Source: Omnitrophica WOR_2 bacterium RIFOXYA2_FULL_38_17
Lineage (GTDB): Bacteria; Omnitrophota; Gorgyraeia; Zapsychrales; Zapsychraceae
Length of the DNA stretch: 64,000 nucleotides
Direction: 5' to 3'
Assembly (NCBI GenBank): GCA_001805965.1
Contig: MHHG01000012.1
Coordinates: forward strand, 220-64,219
In this document: piece after piece, positions 20,228-49,817 of the stretch
Numbering within the stretch: the first letter of the stretch is position 1
Layout of the letters: the number at the start of each line of letters is the position of its first letter
Notes under the pieces: model-generated
Databases searched by the model: none
Seen by the model: the letters and a program-made list of their open reading frames with translations, nothing else
What the model was told of the DNA's origin: nothing
Position numbers and translations under genes: made by a program

Positions 20228-20229
20228 AA

Positions 20230-34738: not shown

Positions 34739-34758
34739 TTATAGACCCATAATAAAAA

Positions 34759-34814: not shown

Positions 34815-35732
34815 TTATTTCCCCTTATCCCTATTTATAATCTTATTTATAAATATTGAAGTAAATCCCAGCCCTATTAACGTTGGGAAAATATGCTCTA
34901 CAAAAGAATACAAGATCCCCAAAGCTAATAATCTTCCAGCTGATGCATATTTTTGAAACAGCAAAATAACCAGCCCCTCTCTCATTCCTAGCCCTAAGAA
35001 TGTTAATGGGATACTGCTCAACAATATAATAATTGGCAGATAAAAAAACACTTCAGAAAAAGGTAAATCAACATTAATAGCTTTTGATAAAAAATAAAAA
35101 CATACTAGCTCTAAGAATCCGAACAAAAGGCTGAAGAGAATTATTTTCTTATTCTTAAAAATATTTTCATTCTCAAAGCACTTTAAAAGTCGTTTTTTAA
35201 ATGTCATTATCCATTTATTCTCAGAAAATAATATTTTGAATTTAACAAAGCAAAGGACTAGGGCTGGCTGATCGCCAGGCAAAGAAACCAAAGCTTTAAT
35301 AAAAACAAAAATCAAACATAAAGACATGAAAAATAACATTGTGAAAAGATTCAGCATATATTCTGCAAATATAGAAAAAACCGAACTTTCATGGTCAATT
35401 CCATTGATTTTTTTTAAGTATAATATACGAGATATTTCACCTATTTTAAGAGGGACTGCGCCAATAATTGGGGCACTACCAACTTTTATAAAAAACGCTT
35501 CTTTATGTGGCAAATGGCATCCCATTACTTTAAGAATAAGTTTCCATCTTATTGATGAGATAAAAAAACCATTGAACAACGCTACCAAAAGGACTAAAAA
35601 TATTAATTTTAAATCTGCAGATCCTACCGTAGCGTAAACCTGGCCTAGGGAAGCTTTTTTTAATAAAATAGAAAAGATAATAACCGTTATCGCAACTGAC
35701 ACTATTGTGCGGAAAGGATCTTTATATGACAT
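34815..35732 (-). CDS. Flippase-like domain membrane protein (lysylphosphatidylglycerol-synthase TM region / UPF0104 family)
   Basis: 305 aa with about 8 TM helices. The N-terminus ...ILLKKASLGQVYATVGSADLKLIFLVLLVALFNGFFISSIRWKLIL is typical of this family. Confidence 0.45.
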   Translation of the reverse strand: MSYKDPFRTIVSVAITVIIFSILLKKASLGQVYATVGSADLKLIFLVLLVALFNGFFISSIRWKLILKVMGCHLPHKEAFFIKVGSAPIIGAVPLKIGEISRILYLKKINGIDHESSVFSIFAEYMLNLFTMLFFMSLCLIFVFIKALVSLPGDQPALVLCFVKFKILFSENKWIMTFKKRLLKCFENENIFKNKKIILFSLLFGFLELVCFYFLSKAINVDLPFSEVFFYLPIIILLSSIPLTFLGLGMREGLVILLFQKYASAGRLLALGILYSFVEHIFPTLIGLGFTSIFINKIINRDKGK

Positions 35733-35798
35733 AAGATTATTGTTTTCTTTTAAAACAAATAAACAAACTGCTCATTACAAAAAAGCATCTTATTCGCC

Positions 35799-36746
35799 CT
35801 AAATATTTTTTAACCATATTTTAATGCTCTTGCTTATACTAGAAACATCAAGATTGTATAATTTTTGCAAGTCGTTTCTATCTCCATAGATCTCACAAAA
35901 TTGATCTGGTATCCCTATAACCTTAAATGAAGGCGTTTTTTTCTGTACTGCGATCAATTCAGAGATCGCAGTTCCTATGCCCCCCGTTACAAAATGTTCT
36001 TCCAATGTTACAAGACATTTAGCATCTTTTACAACTCCCCAAAGCCCTTCTTTATTCATAGGCTTGATCCTGAAAAGATCGATTACACCTACCTCAATTG
36101 ATTGGGAAGAAAGCTTTTTTGCCACTTGTAATGCGCTATAAACCATCCTACCAGTTGCAACAATATATAACTGTTTTGACTTGCTTAAAACAGAAAATCC
36201 TCTAGACAGATCAAATTCAGACTCCTCCTCATATACCAAAGGCAATCCTTCTCTATCCAACCTTATATATCTGGGACCAGATTGATTATCATATTGCCTT
36301 GCCAACAGATCTGCCATTAATCCATCAGCTGGGCTATAAATCTCCATATTAGGCAAAGAACGCATCAACGCAATATCTTCTGTTCCATGATGAGTCGCTC
36401 CAAGCGTTGAGTAATCAAGCCCTGCACCAATACCGACAATACTAACTGGCAGGTTCATGCAACAGAGATCAACTCTTATCTGTTCATAGCATCTCATGGT
36501 TGCAAAAGGCACTATCGCATAAACATATACTATCTTGCCGGTTTGAGCTAACCCTGAAGCAATACCTATCATGTTTTGCTCAGCAATGCCAACATTTATA
36601 TATTGATAAGGAATTTTTTCTTTGAATTCATCATGACATATTGCCCCGGTATCAGATGTTATTAGGATTATATTGCGATTTTTCTTTGCTTCCTCATAAA
36701 GAGATTGAAAGAAAGAATCTCTCATGCCGGCAGTCCAGTGGCTCAT
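35799..36746 (-). CDS. Transketolase, C-terminal (pyrimidine-binding plus C-terminal domain) subunit
   Basis: 315 aa. It matches the split-transketolase second subunit (GIAEQNMIGIASGLA, GATHHGTEDIALMRSLPNM). Confidence 0.8.
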   Translation of the reverse strand: MSHWTAGMRDSFFQSLYEEAKKNRNIILITSDTGAICHDEFKEKIPYQYINVGIAEQNMIGIASGLAQTGKIVYVYAIVPFATMRCYEQIRVDLCCMNLPVSIVGIGAGLDYSTLGATHHGTEDIALMRSLPNMEIYSPADGLMADLLARQYDNQSGPRYIRLDREGLPLVYEEESEFDLSRGFSVLSKSKQLYIVATGRMVYSALQVAKKLSSQSIEVGVIDLFRIKPMNKEGLWGVVKDAKCLVTLEEHFVTGGIGTAISELIAVQKKTPSFKVIGIPDQFCEIYGDRNDLQKLYNLDVSSISKSIKIWLKNI

Positions 36747-37618
36747 TGTAAATCCTCACTTTCTTGATTTAATTCCCTTCGTGCAATATCAAGTTGTTCT
36801 CCAATAGGGACTCGATAATGCCATATCGGACTGTTCTCCATAAATGACACCCCTTTCCCTTTTGTAGTTAAAGCAATTATAGCCAAGGGCTTTGATCTTT
36901 TTTGTTTAGCATTTACCCTGAGCACATGCAATAATTCAGCAAAAGAATGTCCCTGTACACTTATAGCATCCCAGCCAAAAGCCTCCCACTTGTTTTGCAG
37001 CGGAGAAACCGATAAATACTGTTCTAATATCCCTGTCGCAGAAAGCCCATTATGGTCAACAATAGCTATCAAATTATTCAATTTATATTGAGCTGCGAAC
37101 ATTGCAGCCTCCCATACTGACCCTTCATGGCACTCGCCATCCCCCATTAATACAACAGTTGAATAGCCTTTTTTATCCAATTTAGCCCCTAGTGCTAAAC
37201 CAGCACCAATAGACAATCCATGTCCTAATGACCCTGTAAAAGCCTCAACTCCAGGTGTCGAATTTTCCGGATGACAGCCTAAACGATTTCCATTCTTAGC
37301 AAAACCATCTAAATCTGATTTAGGGAAAAATCCAAGATCAGCTAAAATAGCATACAAAGCGGGTGCGGCATGTCCCTTGCTTAAAATAAACCTGTCTCTA
37401 TCCGGCCAGTTATGATCTTTTCCGTTAACACGTAGTATCCCCCCATAATAGAGTGAGACAAGAATTTCCATGCAGGAAAAAGAAGGCGCCACATGGCCGG
37501 CACCAGCGTTAACTGCCATTTCTAAGACTTTTTTTCTTAATCTATTAGCTTTTCCCTTTAGACTTTTAATTTCTTCATTCAATATATTTTTATCTTTTAT
37601 TGTTTTTTCTTCCGCCAT
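36743..37618 (-). CDS. Transketolase, N-terminal (ThDP-binding) subunit
   Basis: 291 aa with GHVAPSFSCMEIL, FILSKGHAAPALYA and the GDGECHEGSVWEA ThDP motif. It overlaps the C-terminal subunit gene by 4 nt. Confidence 0.8.
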   Translation of the reverse strand: MAEEKTIKDKNILNEEIKSLKGKANRLRKKVLEMAVNAGAGHVAPSFSCMEILVSLYYGGILRVNGKDHNWPDRDRFILSKGHAAPALYAILADLGFFPKSDLDGFAKNGNRLGCHPENSTPGVEAFTGSLGHGLSIGAGLALGAKLDKKGYSTVVLMGDGECHEGSVWEAAMFAAQYKLNNLIAIVDHNGLSATGILEQYLSVSPLQNKWEAFGWDAISVQGHSFAELLHVLRVNAKQKRSKPLAIIALTTKGKGVSFMENSPIWHYRVPIGEQLDIARRELNQESEDLQ

Positions 37619-37642
37619 AAAACCTCCCCATAAGAACTTAAT

Positions 37643-39037
37643 TTAGTTTGAAGACATGAAAATGGATTTTAATATGCCATTTATATTTTCATTTACGGTT
37701 CTACATGCTACGAAATATTGAATACGATAACTATACGAAACCCCCTTGTTCTTTTCAAAAAATGCTTTATATAAGCGTACTGGACTTAAAAAATAAATTA
37801 ATGCAAAAAAACGATACAACACATAAATTAATAGCTTCTTACTTCCCCAAAAAACATTAGCCTTTCCAAAAAGATTATATTTTGTACTATCATTTCTACC
37901 GGGCCAATCCTGCCAATAATCCGAACCCGGCCTTGGCTCCAAAATACTTACATGCCATAAAGGTGAGGTTTTTATCAGGAAAAAATAAGTGTTCAGGATT
38001 TCCCGTACAGTTTCATCAAAATATCCAATAACACCATGATTATGTATTAATATTCTTCGCTTATTCAGGCTTTCACATAACTTCTCATTATCTTTGACCG
38101 TATAAGGCTTGCGATATGCTTTCAAAAGCCTCGCATTTGCTGATTCAATACAAACATTAACCTTAACACACCTGCTTTCAGAAAGTAGGTCAAAAGTTGA
38201 TTCATCTTTTATAGAAGCCGACCCAATACCCATACCCCAGTCTAACCCGACATCTTCTTCTATAAGCAACTTGCAAAAAGCACGCAAATTATCTTCATTT
38301 AGCGCGACATCGTCATCTTCTAAAAACACGAAATCAAGATCAAGCTTCTTAGCTATTTTAAACTCATCAACAATCCTTCTTGGAGACTTATGCCTATAGC
38401 GATGTCCCCACATCCTGACAGTCGAACAAAAAGCACAGTTATACACACAACCTCTTGATGTTTCCATACTTATATATCTTAATCCTGATTTCTTAAAGTA
38501 CGGCTCCAGATCAAATTCTGAATAATCATTAAATGGCAAAGTATCTAGATCTTCAATAAGTTCCCGGGGCTTATTTTTAATAATTTTGCCATCGCTCAAG
38601 TACATTAATCCTTTAATATCTTGCAAAGATCGCTTGATCAAACAATATTTTACAAACTCTCTAAAAGTAAGTTCCCCCTCTCCGTAAATAATGAAATCAT
38701 ATCCATGGAATAAAATATCTTCGGGCACTAAAGTCGCATGATTCCCCCCCGAAATCACTATTGTATCTGGATATGTTATTTTAATATCATTTGCATACTG
38801 CATGCAATAAGGTGCAGCATTAGTAAAATTACATGTAATTCCTATAATGTCGTATCTTTTAGATAATATTATATCCAGACCTTTTTTATACTGCACATCA
38901 GTCAAATCTATAAGTTCCATTTCACAGCCAAGCTCTTTGCCAATCAGGTAAAGGTTCATTAAACCCATACTGGGAACGTGCTCATAACATGTATCAACCG
39001 TAGGAACAACTAATAATATTTTCATAATTTTTACCAA
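37643..39037 (-). CDS. B12-binding domain radical SAM enzyme (class B, probable methyltransferase or C-C forming)
   Basis: 464 aa with an N-terminal cobalamin-binding Rossmann region (KILLVVPT...DIIGITC) and the radical SAM motif ETSRGCVYNCAFCS. Confidence 0.8.
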   Translation of the reverse strand: MVKIMKILLVVPTVDTCYEHVPSMGLMNLYLIGKELGCEMELIDLTDVQYKKGLDIILSKRYDIIGITCNFTNAAPYCMQYANDIKITYPDTIVISGGNHATLVPEDILFHGYDFIIYGEGELTFREFVKYCLIKRSLQDIKGLMYLSDGKIIKNKPRELIEDLDTLPFNDYSEFDLEPYFKKSGLRYISMETSRGCVYNCAFCSTVRMWGHRYRHKSPRRIVDEFKIAKKLDLDFVFLEDDDVALNEDNLRAFCKLLIEEDVGLDWGMGIGSASIKDESTFDLLSESRCVKVNVCIESANARLLKAYRKPYTVKDNEKLCESLNKRRILIHNHGVIGYFDETVREILNTYFFLIKTSPLWHVSILEPRPGSDYWQDWPGRNDSTKYNLFGKANVFWGSKKLLIYVLYRFFALIYFLSPVRLYKAFFEKNKGVSYSYRIQYFVACRTVNENINGILKSIFMSSN

Positions 39038-39052
39038 ACAATAACTGTCTTT

Positions 39053-40759
39053 TTAAAGCCCCAAGATTTCTTTATAGAGATTAACTTCATTTACATTAGT
39101 GTCCTTGCATAATAAAGCCTTTTCTATATCACTTTTTGCTTTTTGCTTTTTGTCTAAAGAATAATATGTTAATGCCCTGCTTAAATACGGAGAATAATCA
39201 TCCTGATTAAAGTCTACTGACAAATCAAAGTAGGCCAATGCTTCTTCATATTTATGCATTCTACGATAAGCTTCTCCAACATGACAAAGCACACGATACC
39301 AATTTTGACTAAACTTATTATTGGGCAATACGGTACTTCGGCTATAAGGGTCCTGGCTAAGAAGATTCTTCATAGACTTTTCTGAATATTGAATATTCCA
39401 TAAACTAGCAGGATCCATTAAGAAAAGTGTTTCAAAACACAATAAAGAACGTTCAGAAAACCTGTTATTAGCTTGAATTGAATTAATTACAGCATGAAAG
39501 GTGATTCTTTCCCAATTCATATGGTTTTCTGCAATATCTTTAAATGTTGGCAACTTCACATTAAATGCATAGTCTTCTAACTTTTTCTTAACTGTGTTTG
39601 AATCAAAAAGCTTTGAATAAATATCATTATTCTGAAGAATTGTTTTTATAAGCGCCTTATCCATTACCGGAAAATACTCTTTCCAAACATGACAATGGTC
39701 CCTAAACTGCTCCTTGCCTGTCAAACCATTTTGAGCTGACTTAGTAAATATTTCTTCAAGATCAAGCAATCCTGCGCCTTCTTCTTTAGCTATTTTTTTA
39801 ACAATTTCATTTTTTTTAGTATTTGAAGTATCAGCGACTGCCATGAGATTCTTGGCCAAAGAGTAATTATTCTTTGCCTCAACATGATCATTATTCTTTT
39901 CATGTGCCCTACCAAGAAAATAATACCCTAACATATCTCCAGGATGATCATTAATATAACCATTAAAAACATCTATTGCTTCTGCATAATTCCCATCATC
40001 TAAATAAATCTTACCTTGAATGAACTGACTGTCTACCGGTTCCGGGACATCAACCAAACTACCACTAAAATTCAAAGGCAGAGTAGATAAGACAATTGGA
40101 ACATCATTTTTATTTGCATTAGCAACAATACTCTTTATATTCTTTTCATAATTAAGATAGATCAGTTGAAGCTGGTCAATATTCTCTTCATTTATTTTTT
40201 TATTATTAAACATAATGCTTTTCTTAAAATTGCGATAAAAGGAAAATCGTGCAAGGAACTCATTAAAATAATAAGCAGTTAAATTAATACCTTGTTGATT
40301 AAAATACTCATTATTTCCCGAAATAAGGACTACAAGATCCGGATCATATGACATCATTTCTTTTGCAATAATTTCAACCCTATAACTATCGTAACCCGGC
40401 ATTCCGGCATTAATGATCTCCAGTTTTTTGCCTGGTATTAGGTCAACAGGTAGAGTTATATGCCCCGCCCAATCATAAGTAAATGAACCTCCAATGAAAA
40501 TGATCCTTATTGTATCGTCAGGCTTTTTAACAGAAAACTCTTCATAATCCGAGAAATATTGCCTTTGTGATGAATATACAAAATCCCCACCTTTAAACTT
40601 CTTTTTGTAAAGCTTCTTATAAATATCTCCATATGCATACTTAAAAGAAACATCGTCTCCACCCATGGGAAGCACAAAAGAAGATCGTTTTCCTGATAAA
40701 AAATCAATTGATAGCAGGATAAAGATCGCTGTTAAGATAAATATTATTTGTTTTTTCAT
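39053..40759 (-). CDS. Secreted or periplasmic SGNH-hydrolase domain protein with C-terminal TPR repeats (paralog 1)
   Basis: 568 aa with N-terminal signal anchor MKKQIIFILTAIFILLSIDFL. SGNH blocks are FIGGSFT (Ser), NAGMPGYDS (Gly), ISGNNEY (Asn) and RDHCHVW (DxxH), followed by TPR-like helical repeats. Confidence 0.6.
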   Translation of the reverse strand: MKKQIIFILTAIFILLSIDFLSGKRSSFVLPMGGDDVSFKYAYGDIYKKLYKKKFKGGDFVYSSQRQYFSDYEEFSVKKPDDTIRIIFIGGSFTYDWAGHITLPVDLIPGKKLEIINAGMPGYDSYRVEIIAKEMMSYDPDLVVLISGNNEYFNQQGINLTAYYFNEFLARFSFYRNFKKSIMFNNKKINEENIDQLQLIYLNYEKNIKSIVANANKNDVPIVLSTLPLNFSGSLVDVPEPVDSQFIQGKIYLDDGNYAEAIDVFNGYINDHPGDMLGYYFLGRAHEKNNDHVEAKNNYSLAKNLMAVADTSNTKKNEIVKKIAKEEGAGLLDLEEIFTKSAQNGLTGKEQFRDHCHVWKEYFPVMDKALIKTILQNNDIYSKLFDSNTVKKKLEDYAFNVKLPTFKDIAENHMNWERITFHAVINSIQANNRFSERSLLCFETLFLMDPASLWNIQYSEKSMKNLLSQDPYSRSTVLPNNKFSQNWYRVLCHVGEAYRRMHKYEEALAYFDLSVDFNQDDYSPYLSRALTYYSLDKKQKAKSDIEKALLCKDTNVNEVNLYKEILGL

Positions 40760-40786
40760 TTAAAATTATATTATGAGCAGGTTGTT

Positions 40787-42508
40787 TCAATTAGCAAGAT
40801 TGATTGTTTTAAGTATAATATCTTTGTAATATTGGACTTCTGATAAGTTTTCATTCGCATTTTCTTTAGCTTTTTCAATATTCTTTAAAACTTCATTATG
40901 ATTACCTTGGGAACAATTAAGCAAGGCCTTTCCTAAATACGGCAGATAGCTATCTTTATCCAGTTCAATTGCTTTATCATAATACACATCGGCTTCTTTA
41001 TATAAGTTCATTCTTCGATATGTTTCAGCTATATGATTAATCACTTTCGGCCATTTGCTGTCGAATGAATTTTTAAAAATTATATTATTAACATATTTGT
41101 TTTCAAGCAAATCCCTTTCAATAGAATCTTTTGAGAATTGAATATTCCACAAATATTCCGGATTCATTAAATAAAGAGTCTTAAAGTTATAAAGCGCCCT
41201 TTCAGAATAACCACTAACGGCTTCAATAGCATTAAATGCAGCTTGTTCAATCCTATTACTTATATAATCTTCATTTTTTCCCAATTCCTTTAATGAAGGT
41301 GCCTGAAACGGTTCATTCGAATACGGGATCATTTTATCATTCTTATCCGAACCAAATATTCTTAAATAATCTGAAGTATTGTTCGTAAACTCTTTGATTA
41401 GTGCCTTATCAAACAATTGATAATACTCATCCCAGATGTGACAATGGTCATTAAACTGCTCTCGTCCTGTTATGTCATTTTTAGCTGTTCTCATAACTAT
41501 TGACTCCAAATCAATAAATCCAGTGTCTTCTTCTCTGCTTATTTTACGAATTACTTTATTTCTGCTTGGAGTAACATAATCATCATCGGAAAACTCAACC
41601 GACTTTAAATAGTTCTCTTTGGCTTCTTTATAATCTTTAAGTTCTTCATAAACCTGACCCAAATAATAATACCCATAAATATTTTCAGGATTTCTGCTAT
41701 TAAAATATCTTAGATATTTTATAGCATCAGAATATTTCTTGTTTTCAAACGATAGCTTACCCAGCAAAAAATAATTATCAGATGGTAGCATTAGTGACGA
41801 CATACCATGCAAATTCATTGGCAGTGTACAAAGAATCAAAGGGACTCTTTTACTCCTTGCGCTTCGCACAATAGAACGTAGATTCTTCTCAAAGTAATCA
41901 AGCGTCTTTTCCCTGTCCTTATGATATTTATTTGCATATCTTGATATCAAATGATTAATACTGTTTTTTAAATAATAATAAAGATGATACCTTAGAAAAT
42001 ATTTATTCAGTTTATAAGCAGTTAAATTGAAACCTTGCTGATTGTAATATTCATTATTCCCAGTTAAAACCACAATTGCATCAGGCTCATAGGACAAAAG
42101 CTCTTGCGCAATTAACTTAACTCTATAACTATCATATCCTGGCATTCCTACATTTATAATTTCAAGCTTTTTCCCGATAACAATGTCCTCATCTATTGAT
42201 ATTGCATCTTCCCAACCATGAGCTACTGAACCACCAATAATGAATATTCTTATTACATTTGGGTCTTTTTTAACTGTAAATTCTTGATATTGCTCATAAT
42301 ATTGTCTTTGAGAAACATACATTTCTTTCTCGCCGTTTAAAACTTTTTTGTACAAATTTTTATAGATATCTTCATATTCATATTTAAATGAAGGTTGTTC
42401 TTCTTTAATAACTTGAGCAGGACCATATTTTATTTGCTTAAAGGATTCAATAGCTATCAGTGGAAATAAAAATAAAATCAGCAGGAATAATATAAATATA
42501 TATTTCAT
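40787..42508 (-). CDS. Secreted or periplasmic SGNH-hydrolase domain protein with C-terminal TPR repeats (paralog 2)
   Basis: 573 aa with the same architecture as the upstream paralog: FIIGGSVAHGW, NVGMPGYDSYRV, LTGNNEYYNQ, NDHCHIWDEY, then TPRs. The two share roughly 40-50% identity by eye. Confidence 0.6.
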   Translation of the reverse strand: MKYIFILFLLILFLFPLIAIESFKQIKYGPAQVIKEEQPSFKYEYEDIYKNLYKKVLNGEKEMYVSQRQYYEQYQEFTVKKDPNVIRIFIIGGSVAHGWEDAISIDEDIVIGKKLEIINVGMPGYDSYRVKLIAQELLSYEPDAIVVLTGNNEYYNQQGFNLTAYKLNKYFLRYHLYYYLKNSINHLISRYANKYHKDREKTLDYFEKNLRSIVRSARSKRVPLILCTLPMNLHGMSSLMLPSDNYFLLGKLSFENKKYSDAIKYLRYFNSRNPENIYGYYYLGQVYEELKDYKEAKENYLKSVEFSDDDYVTPSRNKVIRKISREEDTGFIDLESIVMRTAKNDITGREQFNDHCHIWDEYYQLFDKALIKEFTNNTSDYLRIFGSDKNDKMIPYSNEPFQAPSLKELGKNEDYISNRIEQAAFNAIEAVSGYSERALYNFKTLYLMNPEYLWNIQFSKDSIERDLLENKYVNNIIFKNSFDSKWPKVINHIAETYRRMNLYKEADVYYDKAIELDKDSYLPYLGKALLNCSQGNHNEVLKNIEKAKENANENLSEVQYYKDIILKTINLAN

Positions 42509-42527
42509 AATTATTAGCGGTCTTAAA

Positions 42528-43940
42528 CTATTTATTTACAAGATATCTTGCAACAAAACGCTGGGTTAAAATTAACCAGCTTGTAGATAATATTTTATCC
42601 AAAGCATTAACTGCCTGGTCCAGCTCTTCTTTCTTTATGATATATGGCGGCGAAAAAACAATAAGATTACGCCTTGTAAATCCCAGATAAGACAAAATAT
42701 TATGCGCATGGAACAATTCAGACAAGACTATCGCACCGGTTAATGCAAGAAGTGATGATAGCTTATCGGGAAAGAACCTTTTTATTATCGGTTCAATTTG
42801 GTTTGCTGCAGGCTCAAGCTCTACGCCCCATAAAAGGCCCCTACCGCGCACATCAAGAATTCTTTTAGGATGTTTTTCTTTGAGCTCTTTTAAACGCATT
42901 TCAAGATATGCACCCAATTCGCGCGCTCTTTCAACCAAATTTTCATCTTTTATAATATTAACCGCCTCAATTGCAGTTGCACATTCCTCACCCATTCCAC
43001 TAAATGTAGATGAATGTATCATTGAATCGCCTGATTTACCATATGCCTGCAAAAATACCGGCTTTCTTGCTGTAATCCCAGCGATAGATGCTTTTCCCCC
43101 GCCGAAAGACTTAGAATAACAAACAATATCTGGCACAATATTGTCTGCTTCAAATGCAAACCAATAACCTGTTCTGCCAAAACCGATATAGATCTCGTCC
43201 ATAATCAGAAGAACATCATATTTTGTACATAATTCACGAACTTTCTTCAGATAACCTTCAGGGGGAAATATTATTCTAGTACCATGAATTGCTTCTAAAA
43301 CAAATGCACATATATCAGGTTTATTATTTTCTATGGATTTAGAGCGAAATAATTCTTCCAAAGCATCACTATCACCATAAGGGACCTGATAGCATTTATC
43401 TAATAATTGAAAATTATGACGGTGCTCTTCCATACTTGATACCGACATTGACCCATATGATTTGCCATGAAAAGAACGATCCGTATAAGCCAATCCCAAC
43501 CTGTTTTTCCCACCATATTTCTGGGCCAATTTCAATGCCGATTCAATAGCCTCTGCGCCACTACCGCAAAAGTAGGAATACTGCAGATCGCCAGGAAGCA
43601 ATGATGCCATGTTAGCAGCTAGAGCAGCCATATATGGGGAAACAAGGGCTTTACAGACCTCCATTCTTTTATTTTCAGCAAATTTCCGCCTTACTTCAAG
43701 AATTCTTGGATGATTATGGCCTAATCCAAGAACACAGCTACCGCCTGTCATATCAAGAATTTTACGCCCATCATTAAGAGTTATATAAACACCTTCAGCA
43801 GAAACGCTACAGGGGGTATCAAATCTTAATATTTTAAGCAATTTTATCATGCCCGGATTAACATAATCTTCCATTAAGGTTATTTTTTCTTTTGATGTCA
43901 TATTTTCAACATCTGAGACTTTAAACCAAGTTCTATTCAT
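42528..43940 (-). CDS. Class III (PLP-dependent) aminotransferase
   Basis: 470 aa with GGSCVLGLGHNHP, LIMDEIYIGFGRTGYWFAFE and the Schiff-base lysine region YSKSFGGG. Confidence 0.8.
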   Translation of the reverse strand: MNRTWFKVSDVENMTSKEKITLMEDYVNPGMIKLLKILRFDTPCSVSAEGVYITLNDGRKILDMTGGSCVLGLGHNHPRILEVRRKFAENKRMEVCKALVSPYMAALAANMASLLPGDLQYSYFCGSGAEAIESALKLAQKYGGKNRLGLAYTDRSFHGKSYGSMSVSSMEEHRHNFQLLDKCYQVPYGDSDALEELFRSKSIENNKPDICAFVLEAIHGTRIIFPPEGYLKKVRELCTKYDVLLIMDEIYIGFGRTGYWFAFEADNIVPDIVCYSKSFGGGKASIAGITARKPVFLQAYGKSGDSMIHSSTFSGMGEECATAIEAVNIIKDENLVERARELGAYLEMRLKELKEKHPKRILDVRGRGLLWGVELEPAANQIEPIIKRFFPDKLSSLLALTGAIVLSELFHAHNILSYLGFTRRNLIVFSPPYIIKKEELDQAVNALDKILSTSWLILTQRFVARYLVNK

Positions 43941-44983
43941 ACATCCCCCTTAATAGCTTTTTTAATATAGTTCAGCCATACTTCTGGATCTAAATTAAAA
44001 AATAGATTTCTATCAATATATGCAGGGATATAGCACCCCAAACATCCATTTCTTTTTAATTTTAAAATCGAATTCCTCAAGCCATCTTTATGCACATTTA
44101 ATTCCGGCCTTCCCCAAAAATTACAGCAAGGATAAACGCTTCCATCACTATCGATAAAAACAACAAAATCCCCATGAATGCACTTTGTCTTTTTTAAAAC
44201 TTGTGAATTATCGTCTGCATAAGCCATTCTCTTTTTATAGGAAAAAGGCCAACTTGCAGCAATCTCATAACTCTTTTCTGTAAATTGAATTGGATATCCC
44301 CTTTTTTTACATATTAAAATATGTTGAAAAAGAGCTCTCATATGATCATTACTTATCTCATGAGGCTTTGCATCGATTGATTTGACGCTTGAAATAAATT
44401 CGAATGAAGGCGAGAAATTAACTGATAGCTTATTATCCATTGCAAAATTACTCAGCCACTCAATATCATTAACTGTAGTTTCTTGTGTTAGAACAGAGCT
44501 GAGCCTTACTGCTAGCCCCAAAGATCGGGCCATTTTGATCCCTTCAACAACTTTATCAAATGTCCCTTCCCCGCAATTTCTTTCATGCGCTTCTTTTGGC
44601 CCGTCTAAACTTATACAAATTTTATCTAAAAGTTTGATTGTTTCAAAATTTTGGTTTATCAGGATACCATTAGTGACAAGGTCACATATCATCCCACATT
44701 TCCTGGCTTCTTCGATAATAGTTCTCAAGTCATCTCTAAGCAAGGGCTCGCCTCCTTGCAGCTGTAAGATCTTTGTGCCCATCTTCCGGAGAGTTTTGAT
44801 CATTAGAAGAATTTCTTCCGTTGAAAAATCCTTCCAATTATTTCTTTGGTCATGCTGGCCATAGCAATACCAACACTTCAGATTACACTTATTTGTAACA
44901 CATAAAATAACAATCAATGGCACTTTCTTTGATTTTATTTTTGCAAAGACCAAATTTAAAACAAATTTTAGGTATCTAAGCAT
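43937..44983 (-). CDS. Radical SAM enzyme with SPASM/twitch-like C-terminal Cys cluster
   Basis: 348 aa with CVTNKCNLKCWYC (Cx3Cx2C) and a C-terminal CIHGD...PCCNFW...GCLGC motif. Confidence 0.75.
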   Translation of the reverse strand: MLRYLKFVLNLVFAKIKSKKVPLIVILCVTNKCNLKCWYCYGQHDQRNNWKDFSTEEILLMIKTLRKMGTKILQLQGGEPLLRDDLRTIIEEARKCGMICDLVTNGILINQNFETIKLLDKICISLDGPKEAHERNCGEGTFDKVVEGIKMARSLGLAVRLSSVLTQETTVNDIEWLSNFAMDNKLSVNFSPSFEFISSVKSIDAKPHEISNDHMRALFQHILICKKRGYPIQFTEKSYEIAASWPFSYKKRMAYADDNSQVLKKTKCIHGDFVVFIDSDGSVYPCCNFWGRPELNVHKDGLRNSILKLKRNGCLGCYIPAYIDRNLFFNLDPEVWLNYIKKAIKGDV

Positions 44984-45016
44984 AATTTAACGCGTTAATT
45001 ACTTTTTAAAAATCTA

Positions 45017-45709
45017 TTATTTTTTATATATATAAGATATATCTTTACACATCCTTAAAATGGAAGTTAGGCTCAGAGCTTTTGATTTTCCAGAATTTCT
45101 ACCTCTTAATGGTGCTGAAAGCTCAACTACCTCACATCCGATCCTGACTGAATGTATTATGCTTTCTGCACTAAATGCAAAACCTTTAGCAGCTAAAGAA
45201 ACCGACTTTAACACTTTAACTGGAAATACAGTTAAGCCATTGTAGTATTTAAGATCCATTCCAAAACTTTTGTTTAATATCCATGTATATAAACGAGAGA
45301 TCATTTTGCGGAATCCAGGCCTTCCGTCATGCTCTAGATGGTGAGAAGTTACGACACGATCATTCTTCAAATATGGCACACAGTCTGCCAGCTCTTTTGC
45401 ATAATTCTCATGATCTGACGGGAACCATGTAAAATATTCATATTCAGCAACAGCTAGTGCATCCCTGTAGCTAGTTCCTATGCCTTGGTTCTTAATGTGG
45501 CGAATAACTTTTATTTGCTTGTTATTTTCAGACAGTTTGGTAGCTATCCTTAAAGTAGAATCAACACTGGCATCATCAACAATAATGATCTCAAACATGG
45601 CCACGGCTTCAGTCAATACATCCATCAGGTCATTTACTGCTTCTTCAATATTTTCCTCTTCATTAAAAGCTGGGACGCAAACTGAAAGATTTATGGCTCT
45701 TTTGCTCAT
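45017..45709 (-). CDS. GT2-family glycosyltransferase (polyprenyl-phosphate sugar transferase, DPM1/ArnC-like)
   Basis: 230 aa with the N-terminal motif LSVCVPAFNEEENI...IIIVDDASVDST and a later DxD-type region. Confidence 0.75.
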   Translation of the reverse strand: MSKRAINLSVCVPAFNEEENIEEAVNDLMDVLTEAVAMFEIIIVDDASVDSTLRIATKLSENNKQIKVIRHIKNQGIGTSYRDALAVAEYEYFTWFPSDHENYAKELADCVPYLKNDRVVTSHHLEHDGRPGFRKMISRLYTWILNKSFGMDLKYYNGLTVFPVKVLKSVSLAAKGFAFSAESIIHSVRIGCEVVELSAPLRGRNSGKSKALSLTSILRMCKDISYIYKK

Positions 45710-45725
45710 TTAAATTAATGCCTCT

Positions 45726-46790
45726 CTAAATAAAATTAGTATGGCTGTCAGGATTCTTCAATTCCCACAAGTAGCGGTTGATCTCATCCATTCGGCATGA
45801 TTTTCTGCAAACTTTAAGTCCAAATTCTTTTGATATTTTATTAACTACATTTTTTCTCTTTTCTCCAGCCCAAATCTCTTCAAACCCCTCCTGATAAATA
45901 TTCCCATAAGCATACTGCTCATTTCCTACGAACGTGTTACATGGATATATGTTTCCTGAGGCAGCAACATGTGTAATAAATGACAATCCATAGCAACGAT
46001 CATAAGTCTTTTCTTCTTTGATATTATTTATTGCATGCGCTCTTAAAATCACATCAAATCTATTTTCTGAATACTGCTTCAAATCGTTTTCCAAGATAGC
46101 CATCTCAGCAGAGCTAATATCATTTTCCATTTTATTCTCGCTTAAAGGATGTTGAGAATATGGTTTGATAGCCAAATAATCAACCCCTATATTTTTTAAA
46201 ATTTTGACAAGCGGGACTAATTCTTTAATATTATTTTGCAAAAGCAAAAATTGAACACCAATTGTGCATGCATAATTTTTATCTTTCTTTAATTTGACAG
46301 CATATTCAAGATTCTTCATGACTTTCTCAAGATCCCAAGGAACAGTTCCATGAATTTCCGAATATGCTTCTTTAGTACCTGCGTTTAAACTAACCCTTAT
46401 CCATGTTAAATTTGGCAACAGGTCGTTAGCTGCTACCTCATCGAGCAAAACTCCATTTGTAGATAGTGCTGCGTCAATTTTATTCTGCTTGGTAAATGCA
46501 ATAATTTCATTAGCTTTATCATGCAAAAGAGGCTCCCCTTCACCAGAATAAAGCACAGATTTAATTCCTTTTTTTGAAAGCTCAACCAAAAGTTTCTTTG
46601 CAATGTTTTCATCTAGAATATCAGTATTCTTATCCAAGTAATCAAAAGCACAAAAAACACATTTATGATTACACCCGCCATTAAGCCCTATCTCAACATA
46701 AACTGGATAAACATCCTCCCCATTAAGCCATTGATTAACTCTAGAAACATGATACATAAGCTTGTGACTGTCGATTTTATATTTATCCAT
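45726..46790 (-). CDS. Radical SAM enzyme (paralog family A), SPASM-like C-terminus
   Basis: 354 aa with VEIGLNGGCNHKCVFCAF. The C-terminus has Cys residues and ends ...NFI, like its neighbour. Confidence 0.75.
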   Translation of the reverse strand: MDKYKIDSHKLMYHVSRVNQWLNGEDVYPVYVEIGLNGGCNHKCVFCAFDYLDKNTDILDENIAKKLLVELSKKGIKSVLYSGEGEPLLHDKANEIIAFTKQNKIDAALSTNGVLLDEVAANDLLPNLTWIRVSLNAGTKEAYSEIHGTVPWDLEKVMKNLEYAVKLKKDKNYACTIGVQFLLLQNNIKELVPLVKILKNIGVDYLAIKPYSQHPLSENKMENDISSAEMAILENDLKQYSENRFDVILRAHAINNIKEEKTYDRCYGLSFITHVAASGNIYPCNTFVGNEQYAYGNIYQEGFEEIWAGEKRKNVVNKISKEFGLKVCRKSCRMDEINRYLWELKNPDSHTNFI

Positions 46791-46812
46791 ATTTTTAATC
46801 CCAACAGATCAT

Positions 46813-47916
46813 TTAAATAAAATTAATATGTTCCGGAGGAATATTATCCGGCGCATCAAAAGACATTTTATTGTTCTTTAAGTCCCACAGGAACTCATTT
46901 GTCATATGCTGTAAGCATAAAGTACCACAAACCTTTCTAGCATCAAAATCTTTTGAAGCAATTAGGCCCATAACCTCCCAATAGCGGTCGCTCTTCCATA
47001 TCTCCTTAAATGATTTATCAACGATATTTCCTATATGATAATCTTTATATCTTGTGTGAAAAAGACCCCCGCAAGGTGCAACCAAACCAGAACCTGAAAG
47101 CTGCAAAATAAATGGAGGTCCGTAGCACTGGGCATACTTTCTTTTTCCCTCACTTAGCAATTTTGTCCATTTAACTTTTACTAAATAGTCTTGAGCTGAA
47201 TAAGATTCAGCTTCTTTCAGAACATCTTTCAATCCAAGATATTTTGAATAGTCAACACCCAAACTACCAAGGACATCATCACAACAATGCTTAATTACTG
47301 TATAATCGACACCCACTTCTTTACCATAAACTGCAAGAGGAACTATCATTTCAAAGAATTGAGGCATTAAAACCATCTGCAGCCCTATGGTGACTTTCAA
47401 TTTCTGTCTTTTTTTTATCTCAACACACTTCTTTATAGTATTATCAACCTTAAAGAAAGCACTCTCCTTGCAACCCATAATTTTCGAGTATGATATTGGA
47501 TCTGCCGCAGAGATATTGAACCTTAAGTAAGTTAAACAAGGTAGGACCTCTTCCAATCTTTCGTCTTTAAGCAAATATCCGTTTGTGCCTAAGGCGATGT
47601 CCAAACCATTACCCTTGCCTCTTATAATTGCATCATACAAATGTTCAGAGCATGTACTTTCCCCGTCACTGACAAAGCTAACTGCTTTAACTCCAATTTC
47701 AGCAGCATCATCAAGAAATCTAGATATAACATCCTTTGACATTAACTTCTCGTCATTTGCCTGCAATTGGCCATAACAATAAATACATCTATAAGTACAT
47801 CTTCTTGTCAATGCACAATCAACCGTAATAGGAGCGATCCTCTCTCCTCGTAACCACGCATCAACCCTGTCTTTATGCCAATTAAGCTTATGGCCATCTA
47901 ATATCAATTCGCCCAT
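46813..47916 (-). CDS. Radical SAM enzyme (paralog family A), SPASM-like C-terminus
   Basis: 367 aa with VDCALTRRCTYRCIYCYGQ. It has the same N-terminal lead-in (HKLNWHKDRVDAWLRGE versus HKLMYHVSRVNQWLNGE) and C-terminal ...INFI as its neighbour. Confidence 0.75.
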   Translation of the reverse strand: MGELILDGHKLNWHKDRVDAWLRGERIAPITVDCALTRRCTYRCIYCYGQLQANDEKLMSKDVISRFLDDAAEIGVKAVSFVSDGESTCSEHLYDAIIRGKGNGLDIALGTNGYLLKDERLEEVLPCLTYLRFNISAADPISYSKIMGCKESAFFKVDNTIKKCVEIKKRQKLKVTIGLQMVLMPQFFEMIVPLAVYGKEVGVDYTVIKHCCDDVLGSLGVDYSKYLGLKDVLKEAESYSAQDYLVKVKWTKLLSEGKRKYAQCYGPPFILQLSGSGLVAPCGGLFHTRYKDYHIGNIVDKSFKEIWKSDRYWEVMGLIASKDFDARKVCGTLCLQHMTNEFLWDLKNNKMSFDAPDNIPPEHINFI

Positions 47917-48007
47917 AATATTCCCTATAAAGAGCCTTTCCCATAAAATTCTTCTATTTGCTTATCTATTCGCTACTTCAATTAACAAAATACAGAAAGT
48001 CTCCCTT

Positions 48008-48883
48008 TCAATTTGCTTTTACAATATCTTTTATATCAACAGAGCAATGCCCAAATTTTTGGAACCTATTTGTCTTAATTTTCAGATCGCAAGGATTACA
48101 ATCTCCATATTGATCGCAATCCCTGAAAATATCCTCAATATCAAACTCAGGCTCCAAAAGATTGCCTATATGAGGAAAACCTTTGTACAGATCATGATGG
48201 CATCTGTACACCTTACAATCAGGGCCTATTATCAACTCAGTTGTTCTACATTTGCACTTTAACCTTGTCGTACTACCAACAGATCCTTCAAATTTATACA
48301 AGCCCTTTAACTCGCCTTCATGTTGACCTAAAAAATCCTTAACACGAAAATCTATTCCAAATTGCTCACACTTTTCCTTTGTTTCCAAAACATGATCTTT
48401 TGTTAGCGGATGAAGAACACCATATCCTCCAACAGAAAAACCAGCTTTCTGCAAATAAAGTATTTTTTTAATAAAAATATCTGCGCTCATTTGGGTTGAA
48501 TGATAACTGGCTCTTATGCTTGAATAAGGCGCCTCTCTTTTTAATCTGGACGGATTAACTTCTTTTGCAAATTTTTCAACATCAAATGATAAGTTGGTTA
48601 AAATATCAATATTCAGCTGAGTCTCAATATTGTTAATTATTGAAAAGAAATCGGGATGCAAGCTGGGCTCTCCACCTTGAAGAGTAATAGGCAAGTCTCT
48701 TCGTGAAACCAGGCGATTTAAAGCATGGGTCCAATCCTGCCCTGAGATCTGAGGCCATTTATTATCTCGCTTTTCTAACCAATTAATACAATAATCACAG
48801 TTAAAATTACAGTTTAAAGTCAAAAAACAAGCTATATAATTAAATCTTCCCGGAAGATATATTTTCTTTAAGCTCATGTTCAA
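48008..48883 (-). CDS. Radical SAM enzyme with Cys-rich C-terminal domain
   Basis: 291 aa with CFLTLNCNFNCDYCINW. The C-terminus (CKCRT...CHHD...CDQYGDCNPCD...CS) suggests an auxiliary cluster. Confidence 0.65.
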   Translation of the reverse strand: MNMSLKKIYLPGRFNYIACFLTLNCNFNCDYCINWLEKRDNKWPQISGQDWTHALNRLVSRRDLPITLQGGEPSLHPDFFSIINNIETQLNIDILTNLSFDVEKFAKEVNPSRLKREAPYSSIRASYHSTQMSADIFIKKILYLQKAGFSVGGYGVLHPLTKDHVLETKEKCEQFGIDFRVKDFLGQHEGELKGLYKFEGSVGSTTRLKCKCRTTELIIGPDCKVYRCHHDLYKGFPHIGNLLEPEFDIEDIFRDCDQYGDCNPCDLKIKTNRFQKFGHCSVDIKDIVKAN

Positions 48884-49817
48884 TCATTTCCTTAACTTTA
48901 GATGGATATATGTATTCCATACAATATTTAGTTTTATTACAAGTTGTGTTAAAGCAAGAAATGCACTCATATGGCGAATCAGGTAAAATGTATGTCCCAC
49001 ATTCATAAAAACTGAATTCAACCGGGGACGTCGGTCCAAACAAGCCAAGAACCCTCTTTTTTAATGCCAGTCCAATATGTAGCCCTAAAGTATCCGCGGT
49101 TACTATTAACCCGCATGAATTGATCCAATCAATATATTCATTAAGGTTATCAAATCCTTGCTGCCATGAAATTGAATATTGTTCCTTAAGCAATAACTCC
49201 AAATCTTTCCAATAATTATTAGGCCAGGATTTGTTTGTCCAGCGCTTTCCAGTTGTCCAATTAAAGCCGATGTCATAATTCTTCTCAGTCTTTGGTTTAT
49301 ATCCTAATATATATCCTTCACCTTTCCATTCTTTCCCAATAGCCTCTGCTAATATTTTTTGCCAACAATCCCTGTTCTTCTTCCTGTTTTCTACATGTTC
49401 ACTCATAAAAAGCAGTTGAGTCGATTTAAATAAAGTTCCATTTTTATTCGAGCAATTATCTTTAAACCCATAAAATTCGTCTGTTTTTAAAGAACGGCAA
49501 AACGATAGAATTTCATCAGTTTTTTCAAAATTTACAACAATATCAAAATTTTCGTTAAAAAGATCATTCAGATCACATTCTTGGTAAGATAAAATCCTAT
49601 CTATAAATTCATTCCCTTCTAACAAAGGAACAGCTTTCTCATCAACCAACCAGCTAACATAATAATCTTTGAAATAGTGAAGTATAAAAGTCGTCCTAAG
49701 AACATCTCCTAAGTTCACAGTTCTTCCTATGCTGTTTTCTAAGGTCTCTGAATACCCTAATTTTATTATTAATAATTTTCGCATCTTTAAAAAACAATGA
49801 TTAACACATAATTTCAC
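48840..49817 (-). CDS. GT9-family glycosyltransferase (heptosyltransferase-like)
   Basis: 325 aa with N-terminal KLLIIKLGYSETLENSIGRTVNLGDVL and the C-terminal GT9 motif GLIVTADTLGLHIGLALKKRVLGLFGPTSP. Confidence 0.65.
   Translation of the reverse strand: MKLCVNHCFLKMRKLLIIKLGYSETLENSIGRTVNLGDVLRTTFILHYFKDYYVSWLVDEKAVPLLEGNEFIDRILSYQECDLNDLFNENFDIVVNFEKTDEILSFCRSLKTDEFYGFKDNCSNKNGTLFKSTQLLFMSEHVENRKKNRDCWQKILAEAIGKEWKGEGYILGYKPKTEKNYDIGFNWTTGKRWTNKSWPNNYWKDLELLLKEQYSISWQQGFDNLNEYIDWINSCGLIVTADTLGLHIGLALKKRVLGLFGPTSPVEFSFYECGTYILPDSPYECISCFNTTCNKTKYCMEYIYPSKVKEMIEHELKENISSGKI

Follow-up and report, generated by a model that had tools for sequence, protein, structure and literature searches.

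The operon described here lies in a 64,000-nt stretch of the genome of Omnitrophica WOR_2 bacterium RIFOXYA2_FULL_38_17 (contig MHHG01000012.1, positions 220 to 64,219; the whole stretch is called the window below), from a Rifle aquifer groundwater metagenome. Thirteen consecutive open reading frames (ORFs) on the minus strand, at 34815–49817, encode five radical S-adenosylmethionine (radical-SAM) enzymes, two glycosyltransferases, a class III aminotransferase, two SGNH/TPR proteins, both subunits of a transketolase-like thiamine diphosphate (ThDP) enzyme and a flippase-like membrane protein (Table 1). Loci for the tailoring and export of surface glycans are of a known kind; this composition, with five radical-SAM enzymes, a remodelled transketolase-like enzyme and an omega-type aminotransferase coupled to a radical-SAM partner, is not. 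A first-pass annotation, made from the letters of the sequence, had drawn attention to the cluster as matching no characterised pathway, and that judgement stands: none of the 13 proteins reaches the cut-off of a specific NCBIfam enzyme family, no curated model or solved structure covers the core families, and a full-text search of a literature library found no description of the cassette; a 2026 preprint on complete Omnitrophota genomes makes no mention of it.

The ORF listing of the window contains all 13 of the tightly packed minus-strand genes first reported, at the same coordinates and with intergenic distances of −44 to +91 nt. A protein of Omnitrophica WOR_2 bacterium RIFOXYA12_FULL_38_10 matches the aminotransferase at 100% identity. 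Across at least 23 public contigs that encode this identical aminotransferase, gene calling yields the same 13 genes, with later starts for three of them (GT9, 49784; rSAM-Ctail, 48877; B12-rSAM, 39025); for B12-rSAM the annotated start is an internal ATG rather than the TTG of the longest ORF. The top-scoring sigma-70-like site of a scan over 34.5–50.7 kb is the one directly upstream of gene 1, as a consensus match only. Its gap otherwise holds just three ORFs of 26–39 aa, none of them conserved. The 39-aa hydrophobic ORF (49972–50091, minus strand) is uncalled on the identical public contigs, the corresponding gap in the orthologous locus L007 is just 166 nt, and the ORF is probably not a gene. 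At the other end, the strong bidirectional terminator proposed earlier can be read directly from the sequence, where a pattern scanner did not flag it; it sits between the operon and a convergent phosphoenolpyruvate carboxykinase (PEPCK) gene and is common to both. An Rfam scan of the window detected no RNA family and hence no riboswitch control. The co-directionality stressed in the first-pass annotation is correct as to orientation but says little by itself about an operon, because minus-strand genes make up nearly the whole window and its GC skew is negative throughout. Gene spacing, promoter-like site, terminator and conserved synteny together indicate that the 13 genes are one real operon, whose transcription is predicted from sequence; for the functional coupling of the genes, synteny is the strongest evidence.

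Table 1. Genes and signals of the radical-SAM-rich operon, in order from the promoter (window coordinates)
Feature	Coordinates	Strand	Remarks
Promoter-like site ATGACA-17-TATAAT	49833..49861	-	sigma-70-like, 11/12; in 317-nt gap upstream of gene 1
Gene 1, GT9-like glycosyltransferase, 314 aa	48840..49784	-	divergent; ORF extendable to 49817
Gene 2, rSAM-Ctail, radical-SAM protein with its own Cys-rich tail	48008..48877	-	Pfam Radical_SAM; overlaps GT9 stop codon
Gene 3, rSPASM_A, radical-SAM/Twitch-like enzyme A	46813..47916	-	Pfam Radical_SAM + SPASM
Gene 4, rSPASM_B, radical-SAM/Twitch-like enzyme B	45726..46790	-	Pfam Radical_SAM + SPASM; anchor of widespread cassette
Gene 5, GT2, putative polyprenyl-phosphate sugar synthase, 230 aa	45017..45709	-	Pfam Glycos_transf_2; short and soluble
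Gene 6, rSAM_H	43937..44983	-	Pfam Radical_SAM; stop overlaps aminotransferase start by 4 nt
Gene 7, AT3, class III (omega-type) aminotransferase	42528..43940	-	Pfam Aminotran_3, 270 bits
Gene 8, SGNH/TPR protein, copy 1	40787..42508	-	membrane-anchored or secreted hydrolase/acyltransferase; TPR modules: one inserted, one C-terminal
Gene 9, SGNH/TPR protein, copy 2	39053..40759	-	39% identical to copy 1
Gene 10, B12-rSAM, class B radical-SAM protein	37643..39025	-	Pfam B12-binding + Radical_SAM
Gene 11, transketolase-like ThDP enzyme, N-terminal (PP-domain) subunit	36743..37618	-	Pfam Transketolase_N, 129 bits
Gene 12, transketolase-like ThDP enzyme, C-terminal (Pyr + C domain) subunit	35799..36746	-	Pfam Transket_pyr + Transketolase_C
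Gene 13, LPG_synthase_TM/flippase-like polytopic membrane protein	34815..35732	-	Pfam LPG_synthase_TM, 108 bits
Bidirectional intrinsic terminator AAAAAA-GCGGGCTTTT/AAAAGCCCGC-TTTTTT	34754..34785	.	perfect 10-bp GC-rich palindrome between A6 and T6

Pfam searches, which the first-pass annotation had recommended for each protein, place all 13 above gathering thresholds and bear out most of its family assignments. Five proteins are radical-SAM enzymes, each with an above-threshold Radical_SAM match and the CX3CX2C motif, and one of these is a B12-binding class B enzyme; the class III aminotransferase and the lipid-flippase-like protein are likewise as first described. The single NCBIfam cut-off passed is that of the generic TIGR00374 flippase-like domain (57 bits against 43, in the gene 13 protein, which has seven hydrophobic segments).

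The gene order is conserved well beyond the window. In about a dozen diverged Omnitrophota loci (cited below by locus number) the order GT9–rSAM–rSAM/Twitch A–B–GT2–rSAM–aminotransferase–(B12-rSAM/transketolase-like) is kept. L007 has the same gene set at 68–84% identity with one SGNH/TPR gene relocated. L089 reads GT9–rSAM-Ctail–X–A–B–GT2–rSAM_H–AT3–TPR–TKN–TKC (the last two being the transketolase-like subunits), lacks the B12-rSAM gene and carries a YfhO (GT-C) gene in the place of the flippase. The section A–B–GT2–(X)–rSAM_H–AT3–(TPR)–B12-rSAM is kept in L092–L098, and L103 retains AT3–TKN–TKC. An aminotransferase-anchored metagenome scan returned mostly generic class III enzymes at ∼30% identity, with true orthologs at only ∼13 loci.

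A smaller core of the operon, anchored by rSPASM_B, extends far outside the Omnitrophota. We collected 80 GTDB loci with full-length rSPASM_B homologs at 34–53% identity; they span Planctomycetota, Elusimicrobia, Desulfobacterota, Campylobacterales, Gamma- and Betaproteobacteria, Lachnospiraceae, Fibrobacter and DPANN archaea. In 55 of these loci the flanks reach at least 4 kb to either side, and there we counted the genes within 6 kb of rSPASM_B after searching the locus ORFs with the 13 window proteins and clustering all ORFs against each other. A ThDP N-subunit is the most frequent neighbour (44/55 loci, 80%), followed by a second radical-SAM paralog (38/55), an SDR epimerase/dehydratase (34/55), a GmhA-like SIS protein (33/55) and an HldE-like nucleotidyltransferase/kinase fusion (30/55). 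Other window families are less common: B12-rSAM occurs at 20/55 loci, GT2 at 16/55 (as does a SAM methyltransferase), rSAM-Ctail at 11/55 and GT9 at 10/55. DegT aminotransferase, NTP-transferase and NeuB/PseF genes are common further away, and YfhO is also among the neighbours. The first-pass annotation had called for a search of conserved neighbourhoods in other genomes; the order does recur in diverged Omnitrophota loci, and the core in this multi-phylum set. Because the core cassette recurs in many phyla together with sugar genes, we infer that the window operon is no one-off: it elaborates, in a way specific to Omnitrophota, a sugar cassette that is widespread and has no name.

The heptose-type genes next to the cassette are themselves distant from the curated families, with scores of 171 against a cut-off of 521 for the HldE-like protein and 101 against 209 for the GmhA-like protein. 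The HldE-like protein (L064:3818–5338, with counterparts in a further 41 loci such as L008, L017 and L033) has a cytidylyl/adenylyltransferase domain first and a PfkB kinase domain second, the reverse of the domain order in E. coli HldE, and may activate a sugar other than glycero-manno-heptose. A cultured example of the cassette occurs on plasmid pDCAR1 of Solidesulfovibrio carbinolicus DSM 3852, in the order PfkB-kinase–hypothetical–SIS–rSPASM_B homolog–two large radical-SAM genes, with a split 'transketolase', methyltransferases and pseF/neuB-family genes nearby, all generically annotated. The metagenomic locus L172 (JGI 3300036982, Ga0393266_0000013, 3698–17911) equals the window operon in radical-SAM richness with a different gene set: five radical-SAM genes, transketolase-like subunits, GT2, a DegT aminotransferase and an 820-aa protein weakly similar to YfhO.

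The two paralogous enzymes rSPASM_A and rSPASM_B are the centre of the cassette. The first-pass annotation had described them as close paralogs and, with rSAM_H, as SPASM-like. They share just 30% identity, however, and are thus old paralogs; their wide co-occurrence suggests long-standing, functionally distinct partners. The Pfam SPASM model does match A and B above threshold (and rSAM_H below it), but all three have too few cysteines for SPASM, which has seven and binds two auxiliary [4Fe-4S] clusters. Four C-terminal cysteines are conserved in the rSPASM_A family (264, 282, 330 and 334) and four are invariant in the rSPASM_B family (C266, C284, C328 and C332), therefore pointing to a single auxiliary cluster of the Twitch, or BtrN-like, type rather than a full SPASM domain. 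The rSPASM_B spacing, C-x17-C-x43-C-x3-C, is one that we take to resemble that of BtrN. rSPASM_A has orthologs at 280–680 bits in at least 28 other loci, and rSPASM_B has 3428 homologs at E ≤ 1e-10. As family signatures, both paralogs (45726–47916) also share an N-terminal H-K-L-x-x-H...W...G-E motif before the CX3CX2C loop and end in H-x-N-F-I.

In fold, the AF2 model of rSPASM_B (pLDDT 89.7) best matches the TDP-sugar enzyme DesII (TMq 0.72), then SuiB, BlsE and anSME; its family profile ranks BlsE first among PDB entries, followed by CteB, MoaA, BtrN and DesII, with viperins also among the matches. These results favour a small molecule, a sugar or nucleotide, as the probable substrate. A and B share with the sugar-acting, single-auxiliary-cluster enzymes DesII, BlsE and BtrN a partial-TIM-barrel radical-SAM core and a C-terminal domain with about four cysteines. 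Unlike them, they form a large family of their own and reach none of the curated models.

The ThDP enzyme is the most constant partner of rSPASM_B, and its sequence departs in a consistent way from transketolase. The window subunits resemble the split transketolase of Carboxydothermus hydrogenoformans in their two-subunit transketolase fold (6yak, 251 bits for the N subunit; 6yaj, 183 bits for the C subunit), and they score 279 and 188 bits with the NCBIfam transketolase model against a cut-off of 488 that was set for the unsplit protein. The N subunit seemingly retains the ThDP motifs, as read by eye from the translation. We aligned 41 cluster-linked C subunits with the C. hydrogenoformans split enzyme and human transketolase. 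All cluster-linked C subunits, including those of the window and its Omnitrophota orthologs, have Gly in place of His in the T/S-H-x-G motif and Leu or another residue in place of the Asp of GEDG, and have lost the Ser-rich phosphate-loop motif, while keeping the catalytic His of the T-H-H/Q motif; genuine transketolases, the C. hydrogenoformans enzyme among them, show none of these changes. In yeast numbering the window protein has His469→Gly and Asp477→Leu, lacks the Ser386 motif and keeps the equivalents of Arg359, His481 and Arg528. In yeast and E. coli transketolase, the residues missing here contact the phosphate of the substrate and the C2-hydroxyl of the acceptor. The 'two-subunit transketolase' of the first-pass annotation is accordingly right as to the split domains, but the pair is not a canonical transketolase (EC 2.2.1.1) and belongs to a divergent, cluster-specific clade.

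Elsewhere the same gene position is taken by E1-alpha/beta-like enzymes, or by a transketolase-like N subunit with a 165-aa Pyr-only subunit, which makes three ThDP architectures. Because residues are lost in a cluster-linked manner and different architectures occupy the same position, the ThDP enzyme appears to be an integral, specialised component of the cassette and not a stray pentose-phosphate or housekeeping enzyme. A simpler role, in which a transketolase just feeds sedoheptulose-7-phosphate to GmhA, was rejected on account of the lost acceptor-site residues and of the E1-like and Pyr-only enzymes found in its place.

At the promoter end of the operon, gene 1 had been called a heptosyltransferase-like GT9 enzyme. 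Its GT9 signature holds, in the C-terminal part alone (Pfam Glyco_transf_9 at 47 bits, profile positions 173–246), but the heptosyltransferase I and II equivalog models lie far away (32.4 bits against 185.3 and 29.7 against 134.6); in the PDB, 3tov is matched at 27 bits. A C-terminal CxxC-x4-C-x5-C motif (Cys285, 288, 293 and 299), conserved at 89–100% in 18 homologs, suggests a metal or Fe-S site. GT9-like homologs occur in L011, L014, L016, L019, L020, L022, L026, L028, L042, L068, L073, L082, L086 and L088. The next gene encodes rSAM-Ctail, the radical-SAM protein with a different Cys-rich tail in the first-pass annotation, and the tail is a real feature: CX3CX2C is at residue 25, and all of 20 homologs keep C212, C228, C256, C262 and C265. 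Searches of NCBIfam and the PDB gave no specific relative. GT9 adjoins rSAM-Ctail in 15 other loci, and because the two genes are almost always neighbours, their products may form a complex.

The second pair of coupled genes comprises rSAM_H and AT3. The rSAM_H family is narrow, with only 110 homologs at E ≤ 1e-15, nearly all from Omnitrophota. Its members conserve C123 and, C-terminally, C268, C286, C287, C314 and C317, fewer cysteines than the seven of SPASM, in a BtrN-like spacing (C268-x17-C286/287-x26-C314-x2-C317), and the best PDB match is the lipid-acting GDGT/MAS synthase, followed by BlsE and MoaA. The nearest curated families of AT3, both below cut-off, are PigE (315 against 850) and putrescine aminotransferase (276 against 612), which act on terminal aldehydes and amines; AT3 orthologs (59–84% identity) occur in about 50 Omnitrophota clusters. 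In orthologous loci rSAM_H always adjoins AT3, and at least 31 contigs, recognised by their identical lengths, carry both an AT3 ortholog and an rSAM_H homolog. The overlap of their genes suggests translational coupling. In L091 a DprE1-like FAD oxidase directly precedes the AT3 homolog, and because it occupies this place, we suggest by analogy that rSAM_H is an anaerobic oxidant that would prepare a carbonyl for AT3. Pairs of an oxidase and an aminotransferase that aminate a sugar or polyol terminus are known: HpnO in hopanoids, NeoQ/NeoB and KdnB/KdnA. The rSAM_H–AT3 pair is similar in that a class III aminotransferase is tightly coupled to an oxidoreductase-type partner, as again in L091. 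It differs in that the partner is a radical-SAM protein of a narrow family and the aminotransferase reaches no curated model. L090 (ENA ERZ24794679 NODE_133, 1–21413) has rSAM_H–AT3 among five giant TPR proteins (693–1118 aa), two GDSL lipase-like proteins and one protein with a C39 peptidase domain, which suggests that the amination module may be able to work in other contexts.

The class B assignment of B12-rSAM rests on PF02310 (50 bits) and PF04055 (59 bits), with CX3CX2C at residue 197. Its best NCBIfam matches (BchE, HpnJ, ApyD and P-methyltransferases) are all far under cut-off, and its best PDB matches are the methylases CysS and TokK, AprD4 and OxsB. A C-terminal hydrophobic helix (residues 402–420 of the longest ORF) makes the protein appear membrane-tethered. 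Orthologs at 730–800 bits come after AT3 in L092–L098.

For GT2, the first assignment as a polyprenyl-phosphate sugar transferase would fit its closest solved relatives, which are polyprenyl-phosphate sugar synthases: Pyrococcus DPMS (5mlz, over the full catalytic domain) and GtrB (5ekp) at ∼42 bits, with ArnC weaker at 23 bits. Weak full-length NCBIfam matches are to PpgS and to a Halo dolichyl-P hexose transferase, curated models whose cut-offs lie far above its scores; no transmembrane segment was found in GT2. A flippase-like protein comparable to that of gene 13 is present in L091. The operon thus resembles the CsbB/GtrB-type systems of a GT2, a flippase and a GT-C enzyme (YfhO or ArnT) in having a GT2 nearest DPMS/GtrB and a flippase-like protein as its last gene. 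It departs from them in that its GT2 is without transmembrane segments, its flippase is of the LPG_synthase_TM rather than the GtrA type, and the three components do not stand together in the window, their GT-C member being seen as YfhO in the orthologous L089.

The two SGNH/TPR proteins, described in the first-pass annotation as periplasmic SGNH-hydrolase/TPR proteins, each have an N-terminal anchor, a Pfam TPR match and a sub-threshold Lipase_GDSL_2 match. The family has at least 112 representatives at E < 1e-30 in which the SGNH blocks are invariant, and 35 of 40 members do match Lipase_GDSL_2. Blocks I (GxS), II (G), III (GxN) and V (DxxH) and a flavodoxin-like alpha/beta/alpha fold confirm the SGNH/GDSL superfamily. 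In contrast to the periplasmic SGNH O-acyltransferases/esterases PatB, the OatA C-domain, Ape1 and AlgX/AlgJ, these proteins have an inserted TPR module, placed between block III and block V, and another at the C-terminus. Proteins of the MBOAT family usually partner with periplasmic SGNH proteins. PatB/AlgX/AlgJ-type systems also differ from the operon in this respect, since its nearest MBOAT gene is 13 kb away: at 18267–21690 (minus strand) an MBOAT-family O-acyltransferase (20230–21690) overlaps a 363-aa ORF without a Pfam match (19223–20314), followed by a SAM-dependent methyltransferase (18267–19226). This MBOAT protein could be a source of acyl groups for both SGNH/TPR proteins.

We consider it slightly better than even that the operon tailors a heptose-type sugar anaerobically, loads it onto a lipid carrier, flips it and edits its O-acyl groups in the periplasm. 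The heptose-type context is proposed because GmhA-like, HldE-like and SDR genes neighbour the cassette and because rSPASM_B has a DesII-like fold and a BlsE-like profile. A nucleotide- or phosphate-activated heptose-like sugar would come from genes elsewhere in the genome. A and B would abstract a hydrogen from it, so that a carbon is oxidised, deoxygenated or epimerised, and the ThDP enzyme would add or move a two-carbon unit via the carbonyl left by that step; transfer of a C2 unit onto a sugar carbonyl is the chemistry of YerE-type ThDP enzymes. The GT9-like protein and rSAM-Ctail, with GT2, would place the sugar on an acceptor and, in the case of GT2, on polyprenyl phosphate. The coupled rSAM_H and AT3 would then convert a hydroxyl to a carbonyl and on to an amine, as an anaerobic counterpart of an oxidase/transaminase pair; this step is proposed because the genes overlap by 4 nt, share so many contigs and have an FAD oxidase before AT3 in L091. 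B12-rSAM would methylate an unactivated carbon, the LPG-synthase-TM-type protein would flip the lipid-linked product, and the two anchored SGNH/TPR proteins would add or remove O-acyl groups outside the cytoplasm. We propose a lipid carrier and export because GT2 is close to DPMS/GtrB, the last gene has a flippase-like domain, YfhO appears in L089 (and weakly in L172) and B12-rSAM has a hydrophobic helix; periplasmic acyl editing is proposed because the two SGNH/TPR proteins combine the catalytic residues and fold of the SGNH superfamily with N-terminal anchors.

Several points weigh against this reading. Substrate, product and the chemistry of each step would all follow from family analogy, and the family assignments, far under the curated equivalog cut-offs, reach the sub-family level at best. 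The order of the steps is unconstrained, as is the choice between tailoring on a nucleotide and on a lipid carrier. The DesII likeness of rSPASM_B comes at just 15–17% identity, with scores almost as good for SuiB and anSME, which modify peptides; the GT9 match is confined to the nucleotide-binding part at the C-terminus; and the roles given to the lost transketolase residues are carried over from the yeast and E. coli enzymes. A YfhO-like GT-C protein was searched for in the window and not found, so the end of the pathway is missing locally. A phmmer search of all window ORFs with cassette-linked GmhA-like, HldE-like and SDR representatives likewise gave no match, so that the start of the pathway is locally missing too. 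The window does not hold the gene set of an ADP-heptose pathway (gmhA, hldE or hldA/hldC, gmhB and hldD with a transferase). The cassette resembles the ADP-heptose/lipopolysaccharide inner-core system (GmhA, HldE, HldD, WaaC/WaaF) in the GT9 signature of the window and in the GmhA-like, HldE-like and SDR genes that flank 55–62% of the other loci, but it is unlike that system in its distance from the equivalog cut-offs, the reversed HldE-like domains and the absence of activation genes from the window. The proposal of the first-pass annotation, biosynthesis and export of an envelope glycan or glycolipid, gains comparative support from the GmhA-like, HldE-like, SDR, DegT, NTP-transferase, NeuB/PseF and YfhO neighbours of other loci, while the nucleotide-sugar activation genes and GT-C that would complete it are absent from the window. 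The C-methylated, branched, aminated and acylated product that it envisaged is plausible by analogy.

Other readings of the same genes were weighed against anaerobic tailoring of a heptose-type sugar. The operon might be a mosaic whose co-transcribed genes serve two or three processes: a widespread sugar cassette of A, B, the ThDP enzyme and the glycosyltransferases; an Omnitrophota-specific module of rSAM_H, AT3 and B12-rSAM acting, for example, on a lipid or polyamine; and accessory periplasmic SGNH/TPR proteins. The distributions of the parts do differ, with thousands of rSPASM_B homologs across phyla vs about 110 for rSAM_H, nearly all in Omnitrophota; AT3 is nearest to putrescine and PigE-type enzymes; the order of the modules is shuffled among L007, L089 and the window; and in L090, where rSAM_H–AT3 lies among TPR/GDSL proteins, a clear A/B pair is absent and one weak rSPASM_B-like protein (226 bits) lies 9 kb downstream. 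We nonetheless think a mosaic rather unlikely, given that the modules are contiguous at 60–84% protein identity in L007, L089, L092, L093, L097 and L098, that the distant L091 and L172 again combine transketolase-like, rSPASM_A, GT2, and AT3 or rSAM_H-like genes, and that the gene overlaps suggest translational coupling.

The product could also be a diffusible, sugar-derived natural product, aminoglycoside- or nucleoside-like, with the membrane protein as an exporter or self-resistance factor. The closest characterised radical-SAM relatives are indeed from antibiotic pathways (DesII, BlsE, BtrN, AprD4, TokK, CysS and OxsB), and alcohol oxidation followed by a class III aminotransferase resembles aminoglycoside 6′-amination. 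However, the locus is kept across many small-genome Omnitrophota among housekeeping genes, homologous cassettes lie in surface-polysaccharide-type loci with NeuB/PseF, DegT and YfhO, and assembly of an envelope component is what a Dpm1/GtrB-like GT2, a flippase-like protein and anchored SGNH/TPR proteins would suit; a diffusible product is doubtful on these grounds.

Tailoring of a membrane lipid, by a logic like that of hopanoid side chains (HpnH/HpnO/HpnJ/HpnI/HpnL) or on polyprenoid or ether lipids, with sugars in a minor role, would account for the LPG_synthase_TM protein, the B12-rSAM helix, the tetraether lipid synthase match of rSAM_H and weak NCBIfam matches of rSAM_H (HpnH, Tes), B12-rSAM (HpnJ, HpnR and 'lipid biosynthesis B12 rSAM') and GT2 (HpnB). 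These matches are 3–7 fold under cut-off, though, unrelated radical-SAM families score equally well, and the core cassette follows sugar-activation genes, not lipid genes, which leaves this reading very improbable. A hopanoid (hpn) cluster proper was rejected: HpnH scores 83.7 against 225, HpnJ 112 against 578 and HpnB 24 against 379, the membrane protein has no HpnL match, and the operon has no cyclase or prenyl-lipid gene.

Maturation of a ribosomally synthesized and post-translationally modified peptide (RiPP), in which radical-SAM/SPASM enzymes, a B12-rSAM C-methylase and a daptide-like aminotransferase act on a precursor, deserves hardly any credence: although the radical-SAM/SPASM and B12-rSAM families include many peptide maturases, NCBIfam matches extend to sactipeptide/ranthipeptide maturases, ApyD and a daptide aminotransferase, SuiB and anSME are good fold matches and L090 has a C39 peptidase close to its related pair, the tails are of the four-Cys Twitch type and not the seven-Cys SPASM of peptide maturases, the operon includes GT2, GT9 and a transketolase-like enzyme, and sugar-activation genes accompany homologous cassettes. 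A RiPP cluster was also rejected on gene content, with no precursor gene found in gaps of at most 91 nt or among the upstream ORFs (26–39 aa, unconserved and uncalled on identical contigs). A phosphonate cluster was rejected as well, since none of the 13 proteins has a PEP_mutase domain and the P-methyltransferase and PbfA matches are far under cut-off.

The genes that flank the operon are unrelated to it: hydrogenase and Hyp maturation genes, MsrAB, a ZIP transporter, PEPCK and a MoxR/DUF58/transglutaminase group. The last of these lies upstream of the operon, in the stretch 52820–60724, and is made up of a MoxR AAA+ ATPase, a DUF58 protein and a transglutaminase-core protein of 677 aa; the trio also precedes the orthologous cluster in L007. 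The same stretch has, divergent from the trio, an ORF of 1108 aa that Pfam does not match; its N-terminus is signal-like and its C-terminal part has three hydrophobic segments. At 1909–15663 (minus strand) lie genes for a NiFe hydrogenase large subunit, a NuoF-like flavoprotein, HypD, an HypE-like protein, HypF, a multi-ferredoxin protein and a DUF362 protein. The hydrogenase and its Fe-S-rich neighbours point to an anaerobic, hydrogen-metabolising lifestyle.

The Omnitrophota, abundant and tiny bacteria of which most are uncultivated and which may depend on hosts, have an obscure surface chemistry. A conserved operon in which five radical-SAM enzymes would serve a single envelope component offers a concrete way into it, though part of its appeal rests on chemistry predicted by analogy. 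Its central pairing, of a Twitch-type radical-SAM enzyme with a non-canonical transketolase-like enzyme, occurs in thousands of genomes, among them those of Campylobacterales, Desulfovibrionales, gut Lachnospiraceae and DPANN archaea. Activation genes of the heptose type lie beside it, yet it has no curated family model. We tentatively offer a more specific proposal, which we regard as unlikely in its full form: the pairing may follow a new enzymatic logic, in which the radical-SAM enzymes would leave an activated sugar of the heptose type with a carbonyl or a radical and the ThDP enzyme would then add a C2 unit, giving undescribed chain-extended or branched sugars of at least nine carbons, made anaerobically in many bacterial phyla and in DPANN archaea and, in Omnitrophota, further aminated and C-methylated on a lipid carrier. 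Because a cultured sulfate reducer carries the cassette on a plasmid, the proposed chemistry is directly testable. If it is correct, a new higher-carbon sugar would be added to the known building blocks of bacterial glycans, and it could bear on innate immune recognition of the ADP-heptose type.

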